Shown here: positions 6,405 to 52,400 of the stretch, in pieces
Layout: each line of letters starts with the position of its first letter
Position numbering within the stretch: the stretch's first letter is position 1
Source of the DNA: Octopus sinensis
Lineage: Eukaryota
NCBI RefSeq assembly: GCF_006345805.1
Contig: NC_043001.1
Span: 128,526,001 to 128,590,000, forward strand
Length of the DNA: 64,000 nt
Direction of reading: 5' to 3'
Notes under the pieces: generated by a model
What the model was told of the DNA's origin: nothing
The model's database searches: none
Seen by the model: only the letters and a program-made list of their open reading frames with translations
Made by a program: the position numbers and the translations under genes

Positions 6405-6474
6405 CACTACGATTGTTTCATGGCTGTCCAATTCGTAATAATTCGAGTTATGGTTACAGTCAATCTTCAGGTCT
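6405..6474 (-). ncRNA. Degenerate hammerhead motif in CCAR1 last intron (antisense)
   Basis: Reverse strand: ac-CTGAAGA-ttgactgt...acagccat-GAAAC-aatc-GTA-gt. Lies within a repeat whose other part recurs at about 19465-19530. Confidence 0.55.
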
Positions 6475-6636
6475 GTGCCAGTATGTGTGTATGAAAGAGA
6501 GAGAGATTGCTTTAATAATATTAATATTTAATTAAGATTTGTCCAGTTTGGTTTAAAATCAAAAAATTTCTGTGGACATATTGGTTACTTGCCTTCCTTT
6601 AAGATGTTCTTTTTTTGTGTTTTTTTTTTCATTTAG

Positions 6637-6908
6637 ATTTGCTGAAGGATAAAGCATTAAAGCGTGAAGATTTAATTAAACAGATGCAACAGGAACTAAC
6701 TATAATTAAGAAGGAGAAAGAAGAGCAAATAGAAACAGTGTCATCAACTGAAAGTGAAAACAGACGGCTGTTCACTGCTCTAAAACACTGTGAAAAGACA
6801 TTGACTGGTCTTCTGAAGGGTGTTACTACAAGTCTTACACCTTTAATAATAGACAAGAAAAAGAAATTTGATAAAAAGGTGAAAAATGAAAATGATACTG
6901 GAGAATAA
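6637..6908 (+). CDS. CCAR1: CCAR1 terminal coding exon (C-terminal coiled coil)
   Basis: Polypyrimidine tract, then atttag|AT TTG (phase 1, consistent). Coiled-coil-like sequence ending KVKNENDTGE-TAA at 6908. Confidence 0.88.
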
Positions 6909-8036
6909 ATGTTTCAAAGTCCTCCAAAAGAAATGTTCGGATAAATTATGAGAATGAGAAAGGTACCAAGGAATTTATTATTTTTTTTCCTAACATGAGG
7001 TTCCACCAATCTCTACCTTGTCCATATTTCAGTGACTATAAACTAACGGCCAGCAACAACACAACTTTCATCACTCTTCCCTCCACCCATCTTTCTCCTT
7101 GTGTCCCTCTATTCTTTGTCCTCTTTCATCTGTGCTCTTGATCAATCCTGAACTGTTATCTACTTATGCAGTCTTTCCAATGTGTAGATTTGCTTGGATT
7201 TCAAATGATTACCAAATACAGCAAACAAAGATGGAAATGCTTGCTTGCTTGTTTGTTTGGGGGTTTTATTTTTATTGTATTTTCTGTTTGATTTTTTTTT
7301 TTCTTGCATTGAAAATAGAAGTTCCATCAAACAATTGAAAACATTTGGGTTTTTTTTTGCCTCTCACTCTCTCATTTCACTGTTGAATTTGTAAATTTGG
7401 CTGTCGAGGGTGCAATGACTGAAGAAAGAGTACAATAATAAACTGGTATCTGCAGGGACATGTAAATATTATGGTTTAAAAAAATCAACTTCAGCAACCA
7501 CTTTTTTTTTTTTTTTTTTTGTAAGAGTGGCTTTGGAAGTTTCTGCACTGAACAAGTGACCAGATGAAGTGCTGTGTTAATAATATTCCATTATTGCCTA
7601 TAAAAAAAAAATAAAGAAGTCTTCGTTCTTTATGTGAGGTAGGTGGGATGGGGTAGGGAAATTAAAGTAAAAATGATATAAAACTCAACAAAAAATCTCC
7701 TGTTTGTAAAAGAATTTACTTTTATAAATATATAATTTTTTTTTTCTTTTCCTTTCGCACAAGAAGATTTTTCAAAGAAGTTAATATTATACTGAGGCAT
7801 TAATTCTGCACATTGCATTGTTAAATTGGTATTGTAGCTTCTTTCAAAAGCCTTGTTGGGTTATTTTTTTTTTTTATGAAATGTCTATTTTGTTTTAATC
7901 TTACTTCATCCCCAACTTTATCTTTCATCCTCTTCTCTACCATCATTTTTCTTTTTTTTTTTTCAAAATAATTCTGTCCCATGTTGTTTGATATTATGGT
8001 AAATTTAAAAGATTTAATGAAAATGAGATTTTATTG

Positions 8037-8320
8037 ATATATATATATATATATATAAATATGTATATATAAATATGTATATATAAATATGTATATATAA
8101 ATATATATATAAATATGTATATATAAATATATATATAAATATGTATATATAAATATATATAAATATGTATGTATATATAAATATATATAAATATGTATAT
8201 AAAATATATATAAATATGTATATATAAATATATATATAAATATGTATGTATATATAAATATATATATAATATGTATATATATATAAATATGTATATATAT
8301 ATATATATATATATATATGC
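8037..8320. repeat. (TA)n / TATAAATATG compound microsatellite
   Basis: Direct reading. Confidence 0.95.
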
Positions 8321-48771: not shown

Positions 48772-48822
48772 TATATACACACACACACATATATATATAG
48801 ACACATACATACATACATACAC

Positions 48823-49240
48823 ATCATCATCATCATCATCGTTTAGCGTCCGTTTTCCATGCTAGCATGGGTTGGACGGTTCAGCTGGGGTCTGGGAAGC
48901 CAGAAGGCTGCATCAGGCCCAGTCTGATCTGGCAGTGTTTCTGCGGCTGGATGCCCTTCCTAACGCCAACCACTCCACGAGTGTAGTGGGTGCTTTTTAC
49001 GTGCCAGACGGTGCTGGCAAACGGCCACGAACGGATGGTGCTTTTATGTGCCACCGGCACGGGGGCCAGGCGAGGCTGGCAACGGACACGAACGGATGGT
49101 GCTTTTACGTGCCACTGGCATGGAGGCCAGTGAGGGCGGTGCTGGCAACGGCCACAAACGGATGGTGCTTTTTACGTGCCACCGGCACGGGGGCCAGGCG
49201 AGGCTGGCAACGGCCACGAACGGATGGTGCTTTTATGTGC
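48823..49240 (-). mobile_element. Family D retroposon with tandem units
   Basis: Reverse copy, tail-to-tail with 48520-48771. Confidence 0.87.
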
Positions 49241-49316
49241 AGGTGTTTATGCCAGGTGTTTATTCTATCATACATACATACATATATATATACATATACA
49301 TATATATATATATATA

Positions 49317-49419
49317 TGAAGAGGCCGTGGGGCATCCTTGTTAATGCCTCATTTATACCTGCCTTTATGGCTTATAGGTTAAATGAGGTATGACTGTCCT
49401 CACTGCCGAAACAGCTGTC
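49317..49419 (+). ncRNA. 5'-truncated hammerhead motif with very long helix II
   Basis: (TA)n-TGAAGA-ggc cgtggggca...tgcctcattta...taaatgaggta...tgtcctcact gcc-GAAAC-agct-GTC. C3 and the 5' strand of helix I are replaced by the TA tract. Confidence 0.68.
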
Positions 49420-52400
49420 AGTTTTGATTTATATCATATTTGATAATTTTTTACTTATATCTCTTTATCTTTTTACTATTACTGTATATCTCATTTCATT
49501 TTATGTATTGCCTTTACTCATATGTAATGGTGTATTAAAGTATGGATTGAGTTTCATCGGATAGTTGATGTTTTACTGATTTAAGTATATTTCTCCATTC
49601 TCTAATTTTGTAGTATATATATATATATATATATATATAGATATATAGATACATACATATAAATATAAGGATAGTAATATGAAGTTGGAAAATACCAGGC
49701 CTTAATAGCACATCACAATATTTGTTTCTTCACCTGACACCAGCTTTAAGATACTGAGTTTTACATTTATATATGATTATATAAGATTATTCCTTAGAAA
49801 TACTATGAAATTGAATATTCAATTGTCTAGTAATTCTAAGGAGTTATCTTATATAATGATATATAAATGTAAACTCATCAAGTAAATGCTGGTGTAGATA
49901 TAAATGTTGTGAGTGTGGTATTTTCCGTTCTTCTGTGATATTATTCTTAGATTAATCCTATACATTAGTGGAGTTCCACCTGTTTCTCCAGCCTTTGGAA
50001 ATATCCTGCTGTAGAGTGACGCATGGTATATGCTCTTAAATGTATGTTGTGAGGTTATTACCTGAATTATACTAAATATATGTGTGAGTGTGTGTGTGTT
50101 TGATATGTCTGTCTGTCTGTCTGTCTGTCTGTCTGTCTGTATGTATGTATGTATGTATGTATGTATGTATGTATGTATGTATGTGTGTGTGTGTGTGTGT
50201 GTGCATGTTTGCATTAAATCCTTAAATCCTTTAAAATGTTTTAGCCCGAAGGCCGCAGCCATGCTGGGGCACCAAGTTTGTTTATATCCCCCATAACTTA
50301 GCGGTTCAGTAAATAGAGACCGATAGAATAAACACCTGGTATAAACCTTTGAAGGCCGTGCCCCTGTCTAGCTACAGGGCAAAGTAACAAAAACAAAAAC
50401 TGCTAAGTTACCAACCAACACTATCATTTTGAAATATTTCCAATATTTCCCTTAAAGTAATCCATTTAGAACTCTCTCATAAGTTTTTAAGTTTTCTCTT
50501 CTTTTTAGAAAAAAAAAAATAATAATAAACTTCCAAAGCTGTGCTCCAGTTTGGCCGCAGTCCATACTGTTATATGAAAAAAAAAAAAGAAAAAAATTTC
50601 GCGTCGTCTGCACTGCAAGACAAGAATAACCCATATCAATAGGAATGTCCGATAACGAGGCTTACATAAGTAAATATGATCGACTAGTTTGTTCTTTTCG
50701 TTTCGACTTGGTGCATCCCACGATTTCAAGAGAATGCATCATGTGAGGACGGATAGGTGTGTGCTCTTAATTACACCCTGGGTACTTTACGCAAAGAAAA
50801 CAAAACGGGTTGTCCACTATTGACAAAGTAAGTGTTTAAAGCATATAAGAAAAAACGTAATCACTGTAATTGTTCGTTTTGCTTTTATTTATTTGTTATT
50901 TTATTTTCTTCTGCTTCTTTGATTCATTTATTTCCGTCCGTTTTAGTTTTCGCTACGATTTCTTTGGTATTCTAAGGGGTGTGTGTGTGTGTTTTCCACA
51001 ACAGAACACTGTCTCGTTCTTTAAGTATTGTCGGAGAACACGTTATCTATTTTTCGCTTGTAAGAACCCGTTGTCATCATTTAAACGTTGTCATCATCTC
51101 TTAGTATTTTCTATTTTCATTCATTGTATCAACCATGCCTACCCCCAACCCTTCCATCTCCAGGTGCGTGCGTACGTGCATTATATACAGCACGTAGTTT
51201 TGGGTGTATAACGAAGAAATACTAAATACAAAATCTGTGCGCGCATGTATGTTATGTAAGAATATATATTTATGTACACGCATTTGTAGTATGCATAAAT
51301 ATTTATGTATATATATACGCTGATTGTTATATATGGATGCATTTGCATCGTACATATATATATAAAATTAATTAAGGGTAGAAATTGATATTTATCAATT
51401 AAAACCAGTGGTCTAGCATATTAAAAAAGAATCCGAAGATTAAAATATTTATATATACCAATTAAGGACTGAACACGAAAAGTGGACAGTCAACATGCTA
51501 AATATAGACGTCAAATCGCCATTCTCCACAAAAGATTGTTCTCAAATAAAACTCAGCACAAAACCAAAGCAATAAACAAGTGAAAATATACGAAATAAAA
51601 TAATTACCCATGTACTGATCAGTTTCGGTTATTATATATATATATATATATATATATATATATATGCATATATGTATGTGTTTGTATAATACACATGCAC
51701 CGTATCATCAACCTTCCAATAATTGTTTAATTACCAATTATCGTATCTATGTAAAACAAAAACATATTAGCTCGTTTGAGAAAGGTACTGCTATCCCCTC
51801 CTCTACATATACTTAATGAAACCTTTGTGTTAGGTGCAAAAAAAAAAAAAATTATAATTATTCCGACCGAGACAGTAGGGCGTCAGATTAAATGTAAAAT
51901 GCATTTTGTTAATTGTTGTTCTGTAGTCCTATAGCAGCCCTGATCATGAACAAATGCTTTCCAACCGTGATCAATGTGTCTTAATTTCTTTCTTTTATAT
52001 TAGGGCATAGTATCCTAAATTTCTATGAATTCTCTTATCCGAGGTGTATGCAAATTTTGTACTTTTAGGTTTTTGGATCAATTTACCTATGGGTCATCTT
52101 ATTAATTTTTTTCTTCTTTCTTTCGTCATAACTACATAAATCGCTGAATATTAATACCAGTAATATAACAGTCAATTTTAAAATTCATAATAAATTAAAT
52201 ATTCATCATTCGCTTGAAACTTAATTGAAAAGAGAAATTTGTTTACTAGTAAACAATTGCAATGGCTGATTGTATAAGGTAAATTTCAGGTTTTCAGATT
52301 AAAAACAAAATCAGGTTTGTGCCCTACAAAATCATCATTGTTATTGTTTTGCTGTAGTGTTCTTCATTTAGGTTCATTCGAAATTAGGTTCGTCGAAAAC

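Follow-up and report, generated by a model that had tools for sequence, protein, structure and literature searches.

We analysed a 64,000-nt stretch of the Octopus sinensis genome (NC_043001.1, positions 128526001-128590000; hereafter the window), which is rich in TA microsatellites and in repeats resembling short interspersed elements (SINEs) and carries a series of type-I hammerhead ribozyme motifs. These motifs are very probably the pseudo-long terminal repeat (pseudo-LTR) hammerheads of Hydra-clade Penelope-like elements (PLEs), situated at the 3' ends of 5'-truncated (TA)n insertions, with a palindromic helix III through which cleavage is predicted to occur in dimers and a long helix II that is likely a tolerated, structurally maintained extension. 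An initial annotation had listed eight loci with the hammerhead order of helices and a half motif near position 51611 on the minus strand. Each locus was used as a query against the 2.72-Gb assembly, which gave at least 40 matches, and 40 candidates per locus were scored. The motifs proved genuine at seven of the eight loci and at the half motif, each with many genomic copies, and complete hammerheads could be read across the homologues of families A, B, C, E, F, G and H. Loose counts of first-look candidates were 2,906 for family A (38551/38902), 1,308 for B (18087), 1,987 for C (38317), 280 for D (32004), 1,222 for E (49317), 1,469 for F (6405), 2,032 for G (51611) and 1,483 for H (35696). 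The features of the window, as we read them from its sequence and its genomic copies (loci designated L), are the following.

6235..6472 (-): 3' end of a Hydra-type PLE of family F, 5'-truncated within helix I; motif 6406-6472, helix II 44 nt, (TA)n end

16105..16152 (-): short inverted 5' piece of a family B insertion; 48 nt, 100% identity to L111 and L113, inverted

16149..18211 (+): family B copy with the last codons of the open reading frame (ORF), the entire ~1.9-kb 3' untranslated region (UTR), ribozyme, tail and (TA)n end; 93% identity to L111 over 2.06 kb

18087..18164 (+): intact type-I hammerhead of family B with a 4-bp helix I, a 51-nt helix II and helix III ACAUAUGU; cleavage predicted after 18160

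18643..18682 (-): additional old hammerhead with near-palindromic helix III; short helix II of 10 nt

32004..32111 (+): not a hammerhead; chance resemblance within a decayed transposase gene (likely Tc1/mariner), at its 3' end; homologues without the core

35602..35781 (+): 3' end of a family H PLE; motif at 35696-35751 with a helix II of 29 nt and one helix III change

38222..38463 (+): 3' end of a family C PLE; motif at 38317-38395 with a 5-bp helix I and a helix II of 50 nt (most copies have 54)

38478..38807 (-): family A copy that forms one of the two arms of an inverted insertion; motif at 38551-38602 with the core CCGAUGA and a helix II of 25 nt

38813..39167 (+): family A copy, the other arm, with a longer tail; motif 38902-38953, damaged core CCGUUGA

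49317..49616 (+): family E PLE 3' end, truncated at C3 with helix I lost; helix II forms an 85-nt hairpin (49323-49407)

51355..51635 (-): 5'-truncated copy of the family G unit, which is non-coding, retrozyme-like and 505 nt long; of the motif, helix III ACUGAUCAGU and the 3' strand of helix I are left

Most genomic copies of families B, C, E, F, G and H conform to the core CUGANGA, GAAA and NUH in the order helix I-II-III-I. The window copies are less uniform than the annotation had it: core, helix I and helix III are all intact only at 18087 (+) and 38317 (+), i.e. at two of the eight loci. The F, E and G copies are broken off within the motif (6405 on the minus strand within helix I, 49317 on the plus strand at C3), the A and H copies carry point changes, and the loci at 35696 (+), 38551 (-) and 6405 (-) have one helix III change each. 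The list itself needed amending, since 38551 (-) and 38902 (+) belong to a single inverted insertion as its two arms and the short-armed motif at 18643-18682 (-) had been missed, while the half motif near 51611 turned out to belong to a real hammerhead family. A motif frequency no higher than in dinucleotide-shuffled sequence had been named as a reason to doubt the system; the window contains five perfectly palindromic GAA-AC...GT-H halves against 0.57 +/- 0.82 in 200 such shuffles, one of which reached five. Helix II inserts among the window motifs measure 25, 25, 29, 44, 50, 51 and 85 nt. Families C and A end tail to tail in one (TA)n tract (38450-38490).

The locus at 32004 (+) was rejected. 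It reads CUGAGGG and has no proper register of NUH and helix I, and GAAAC..GT-H is kept in none of the eight homologues aligned across both halves (19 were examined). These homologues look like the terminal part of a transposase-like frame, with WPPxSPDLN and C-terminal motifs that we take to be those of Tc1/mariner, and the locus is likely the 3' end of a decayed Tc1/mariner transposase, judging from these frames. No Pfam or NCBIfam match to a transposase domain was found for it, and the match of the region to SETMAR was weak (E 0.93).

We then counted exact matches to the pattern CYGAWGA-N-GAAACAKMTGTH over the whole genome, with the reversed pattern as control. The 16,222 matches, against 70 in all for the control, comprise 2,733 (control 17) with a helix II of 5-21 nt (of the 100 matches listed, almost all had 20-21 nt), 1,883 (control 10) at 22-29 nt, 8,870 (control 17) at 30-60 nt and 2,736 (control 26) at 61-90 nt. 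Helix II thus spans 30-90 nt in 11,606 motifs; the long helix II is genuine, and the annotated statement that it exceeds that of typical minimal motifs stands. The explanation that such motifs are chance matches in an AT-rich, repeat-rich genome, which is true of the locus at 32004 and could draw on the helix I of less than 2 bp in 4 of the first 30 pattern matches, is refuted for the other loci by the comparison of 16,222 matches with 70 controls, and we give it next to no chance. Long arms dominate this class, not every class. The short-armed class with helix III ACT-NNN-AGT gave 6,159 exact matches against 50 in the control and is dominated by a young family with an 11-nt helix II, often present as close inverted pairs; the window motif at 18643-18682 (-) is an old copy of this class. 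A further class with helix III ACTGATCAGT gave 108 exact matches against 0. Together the exact cores number ~22,500 in 2.72 Gb, or ~1 per 120 kb, a count of the listed helix III words from which other helix III words and decayed copies are left out. The window, with three exact cores in 64 kb, lies above the genome average; for intact motifs, the density of about one per 8 kb proposed before does not hold genome-wide. The Rfam hammerhead model found none of the window copies among the 150 matches listed of 179, and none among the five matches for 38280-38990 at E<10.

Pairing was assessed in the first unselected matches of the long-armed classes. At 30-60 nt, helix I has at least 3 bp in 22 of 30, against 3.4 expected from shuffles, and helix II has z < -1 in 23 of 30; at 61-90 nt the corresponding figures are 11 and 15 of 25. 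The sequence of helix I varies by family with pairing retained. In family C, 91% of cells pair across 24 variants (10 unselected matches and 14 chosen for diversity or family membership), with 7 of 16 pairs changed on both sides and 41-47% pairing in slid controls; 12 bp of its helix II pair with covariation. The 85-nt arm of family E folds at -38 kcal/mol (z = -6.2) with 34 predicted pairs, and compensatory changes occur in its distal arm among eight close variants, while its proximal helix I has just 2-3 bp. The earlier view of several families whose helices I and II differ yet still pair is therefore confirmed for helix I and by the covariation in family C. In family A the core is CCGAUGA (U4C) in 29 of 35 copies, a variant that recurs in some C, E and H copies. 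U4C is reportedly compatible with cleavage in a viroid. As a hairpin, helix III is computed to be unfavourable (+1.5 to +2.4 kcal/mol) and as a duplex favourable (-7 to -13.6 kcal/mol), and co-folds place it between molecules. A palindromic helix III predicted to be unstable alone and stable as a duplex is suited to dimers, as annotated, and is in line with the model of dimers that Cervera and de la Pena (2014) put forward.

On the evidence of their anatomy and coding links, families A, B, C, E, F and H are the 3' ends of 5'-truncated PLEs that run into (TA)n and have protein-coding partners elsewhere. No Penelope-type ORF is present in the window, as annotated (tblastn, no match at E<1), and such frames adjoin the same motifs elsewhere: a Hydra-type reverse transcriptase (RT)/GIY-YIG frame is linked to each of the six families, upholding the proposed Penelope-like origin. 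The clearest case is L117 of family E, in which an uninterrupted 960-codon frame lies between 625-bp direct repeats with an E motif in each, giving a unit of 5,570 bp that is preceded by an inverted 5'-truncated copy and has (TA)n at its end. L111 of family B has the same anatomy with one frame break, its ORF being in two frames. Pseudo-LTRs, partial tandems, inverted 5'-truncated copies and a tail are seen in L117, L111 and L119, and 3' ends are clustered. Same-strand ORF or endonuclease remnants lie upstream of the B, C, A, F and H motifs. Hydra-type protein matches occur within 1.5 kb in 10/20 C, 2/30 A and 1/15 F loci; an endonuclease end lies ~1 kb upstream of the A motif in L012, an endonuclease remnant on the same strand ~0.7 kb upstream in L133 (the one F locus), and an endonuclease end upstream on the motif strand in 3 of 20 walked H loci. 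In a genome that is itself TA-repeat-dense, a (TA)4 run lies at most 600 nt downstream of the core in 128 of 135 loci, at distances that fall in two clusters (A ~+72/+215, B +44/+115, C +50/+210, E +197/+373). The motif of family B is identical in 33 of 35 matches, and because its best matches are 99-100% identical between chromosomes the family is very young.

We assigned the elements to the Hydra clade from protein features of E and B, by motifs and alignment rather than an RT tree. Hydra-clade PLEs have an RT followed by a C-terminal GIY-YIG domain, DKT, an RWK-like motif, CxCx5C, CxxC, CxH and (TA)n targets (Craig et al., 2021, PMC8557442). The family E protein (P0001) has RWR for RWK, DKT, GLYRDD, a CxCx5C linker, CxxC, CxH and, at its C terminus, a GIY-YIG-like domain, and the family B protein (P0002) has CxCx5C, CxxC and CxH. 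GLYRDD is seen in Hydra sequences of the supplement of the same paper and is not among its stated Hydra features. From the Cys linker the ORFs had been taken for Nematis/Neptune, which was dropped for Hydra after comparison with the published features. A Pfam search of P0001 and P0002 gave no RT domain; the one protein homologue with a name comes from Argonauta hians. On its protein features, family C is classed no further than as Hydra-like. Its endonuclease region (L058:2-877, L068:1582-2784) lacks CxCx5C, a linker thought to aid (TA)n targeting, and its copies still end in (TA)n. Stop codon and ribozyme are 1.9-2.1 kb apart (L117, window 16149-18211), the ORFs have Asn-rich insertions, and the family B 3' UTR carries microsatellite-like tracts. 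On C26, family H forms a tandem of 782-786 bp that includes a host SINE-like repeat and that we took for a local duplication.

The initial annotation had taken the population for non-autonomous retroelements. This survives only for family G, and not for A, B, C, E, F and H, which we read as truncated 3' ends of coding elements. Core-to-core distance in G is 505 nt in L141 and 501 nt in L145, with one hammerhead per head-to-tail unit and a longest frame of 53 codons, and none of 15 G loci had a Hydra protein match. Among the 14 other loci, nine (two being the same insertion) reach 5' past unit position 279, one by just 5 nt, and in all nine what follows is again unit sequence, over as much as 2.3 units; the same holds for five of six further insertions. 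The 3' ends fall mostly at unit position 184 or 273-279. The sequence upstream matches the family's own tail in 5/15 G loci and 1/15 F loci, against 0/30 in A, 0/20 in each of B, C and E, and 0/13 in H. Judged by these junctions, circular permutation marks G; A, B, C, E and H lack it, and F shows it once. As far as its DNA copies tell, G is built like a non-LTR retrozyme and combines this with inversions of the PLE type and (TA)n ends. No autonomous partner of G was found, and its template may have been a circle or a multimer. A second retrozyme-like family, K (L292-L318, e.g. L293; outside the window), has a 49-nt helix II, helix III ACTGATCAGT and an apparently circularly permuted unit of ~455 nt with no Hydra protein match nearby, and is a sister to G. 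Extending this anatomy to every family, as the annotation did, is very unlikely to be right: it fits G and apparently K, and the window has no ORF, but coding frames lie upstream of the E, B, C, A, F and H motifs, contradicting it for B, C and E, and the upstream own-family tails seen in G are missing or, in F, nearly so.

Animal non-LTR retrozymes share with G a non-coding head-to-tail unit with one type-I hammerhead each, and differ in length, at ~300-390 nt against 505 nt (Cervera and de la Pena, 2020, PMC7229834; 10.64898/2026.07.22.740005). Unlike retrozymes, G copies are mostly dispersed and 1-2.3 units long; they carry inversions of the PLE kind, end in (TA)n and have their 3' ends at two fixed positions. 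Retrozymes have been proposed to derive from PLE pseudo-LTRs (Li et al., 2026, 10.64898/2026.07.22.740005), and the apparent anatomy of G agrees with such an origin.

Several observations weigh against reading the motifs as pseudo-LTR hammerheads of Hydra-clade PLEs that cleave as dimers. In family B, five junctions start at the predicted cut, against 625 intact copies that span it. The 15 copies without the G three bases before the site comprise these five 5' junctions and six small indels, the rest being substitutions or unclear. Control sites gave 2, at least 2 and at least 3 junctions: 2 of 15 at +5; at -9, 3 flagged of 30 examined (65 found), one of which was dropped as an internal deletion; and at -25, 8 flagged of 30 examined (45 found), five of which were dropped by eye as subfamily variants or duplications. 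There is no clear pile-up of family B 5' junctions at the cut, and we claim no enrichment. In addition, the coding links of A (2/30 loci) and F (1/15) are thin, and the CxCx5C linker is absent from both aligned family C frames (P0003 and L068), of which L068 has CxxC and CxH. The Pfam GIY-YIG match in P0003 is sub-threshold and Pfam finds no RT in P0001, so the domain calls rest on motifs and alignment. The 24 family C variants are partly hand-picked and related, which inflates the covariation, and the A, B and C arms folded singly are not clearly beyond shuffles (z ~ -1.3). Three family B loci (L282, L287, L290) have 3-6 extra bases exactly at the predicted cut, which may be template jumps; indels occur at control sites too.

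The lack of a junction excess at the cut site would also suit motifs that cleave no longer and are kept as structural or vestigial parts of pseudo-LTRs, as would the spread of family A with a CCGAUGA core, the 2-3 bp of proximal helix I in family E and the insertion of a green anole element in vitro, which was unaffected by ribozyme mutants (Frangieh et al., 2024, PMC11167929). We nevertheless think this unlikely, as the core, NUH and a covarying helix I are kept over many unrelated families, which suggests selection on catalysis; the reported compatibility of U4C with cleavage in a viroid also speaks against it.

Another explanation concerns the long helix II, which could be a second functional module, either an RT docking site or double-stranded RNA recognised by host ADAR or Drosha/Dicer, with the ribozyme being switched or silenced in consequence. 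Its pairing is kept far past the 4-7 bp needed by the core (12 bp covarying in C, 34 predicted pairs in E), it is at least 30 nt long in most of the counted motifs (11,606/16,222), and the anole PLE ribozyme cuts only with protein (Frangieh et al., 2024, PMC11167929). We consider a second module rather unlikely all the same: the arms vary freely among families in length (11-90 nt) and sequence, an abundant family manages with 11 nt and published Hydra elements with 12-26 nt, no shared loop motif was seen, and the E alignment has only eight close sequences. A broader proposal, which strikes us as improbable, combines a helix II that has acquired a working role of its own (as a hairpin of up to ~34 bp to which the RT docks or which host double-stranded RNA enzymes recognise, and which so gates the ribozyme) with G and K as small circular-RNA parasites copied by the Hydra RT. 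If it were true, the autonomous elements and G/K would be a natural matched pair for showing how retrozymes move.

Returning to pseudo-LTR hammerheads with a tolerated long arm, from the element anatomy, the coding partners of six families, the copy numbers, the pairing and the covariation that we observed, we infer how the elements may propagate. A tandem copy would be transcribed from the upstream pseudo-LTR. The RT-endonuclease would nick (TA)n, with priming at one of about two internal sites 40-370 nt beyond the ribozyme, and the RT would copy back through a ribozyme that is mostly uncut or re-joined, since copies span the predicted cut and should start there if cut linear RNA were a common template. 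Copying would usually stop early, often with inversion. Cleavage is predicted only when two motifs pair through the palindromic helix III, and the role of the ribozyme is most likely to process tandem transcripts now and then, with the help of a dimer partner or a protein. That these motifs use no contact between loops I and II is the most likely reason for the growth of the long arm, pairing being kept to close the core. The 505-nt G unit, a non-coding derivative, is likely copied in trans by a Hydra-type enzyme from tandem or circular RNA.

Much of this has precedents. Hydra hammerheads are likewise type-I motifs close to the 3' end; their helix III is (near-)palindromic, of the form AC-N-GT, their helix II is often flanked by one unpaired base on either side, and an octopus element, Hydra-1_Obim, has been published together with its hammerhead (Craig et al., 2021, PMC8557442). 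The 26 published rows have 12-26 nt between the core halves by our own count (23 in Hydra-1_Obim), against 25-85 nt in the window, and the published elements are mostly <3 kb, against 5.6 kb in family E with ~2.1 kb from stop codon to ribozyme (PMC8557442). The same paper shows long helices II of 48 and 54 nt (own count), marked there as non-canonical, in spike-moss PLE-X1; those are two endonuclease-less, ribosomal DNA-targeting plant families, whereas here there are many families of an endonuclease-bearing animal clade and >11,000 copies. Minimal PLE hammerheads (Cervera and de la Pena, 2014, PMC4209133) are also type I, with pseudo-LTRs, a palindromic helix III and a short helix I, occur mostly as single truncated copies and inverted pairs in many covarying families per genome, and have low, dimer-dependent activity; their 'larger than usual' helix II is 6-8 bp, compared with ~34 bp with internal loops here. 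Poseidon of the green anole shares two internal RT start sites that give a tail. It belongs to another clade, and its ribozyme overlaps the start codon, whereas the first in-frame ATG of family E is ~0.5 kb downstream of the ribozyme; in that work, no RNA ends were found at the ribozyme cut and cleavage was not needed in vitro (Frangieh et al., 2024, PMC11167929). We found no literature on long-helix-II PLE hammerheads in cephalopods, and Arkhipova (2017), Lunse (2017) or the supplements of Cervera (2014) and Li (2026) may already show such motifs. The main text of a 2026 octopus repeat annotation makes no mention of hammerhead, ribozyme or Hydra.

Other features of the window were noted as well. 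A 5S rRNA-like sequence at 47970-48086 (-) scores above the Rfam gathering score (73.9 bits) beside a long (TA)n and is either a gene copy or a SINE head. Inverted repeats of 431 nt (30461-30891 and 33688-34118) are 96% complementary and lie 2.8 kb apart. The frames at 20560-21090 and 28831-29289 (-) resemble exons of what we take to be an MMAA/MeaB-type GTPase gene, and that at 1521-1883 (+) includes an EF-hand-like exon, presumably resembling CCAR1/DBC1. Two decayed frames at 40004-40741 (-) and 33361-33897 (-) are presumably of the long interspersed element type.

PLE hammerheads, their palindromic helix III and their dimers are known; what these data add is the scale and form of the long-armed population, with >11,000 exact-core motifs whose helix II region lies beyond that of any of the 26 published Hydra rows. 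Since Rfam did not detect the window copies, ribozymes may be undercounted in genomes of this kind. The octopus genome also carries very young, intact autonomous elements beside non-coding 455-505 nt units that share their insertion signature. Altogether, two questions become testable in this system: what purpose the PLE hammerhead serves, and whether PLE enzymes move retrozymes.

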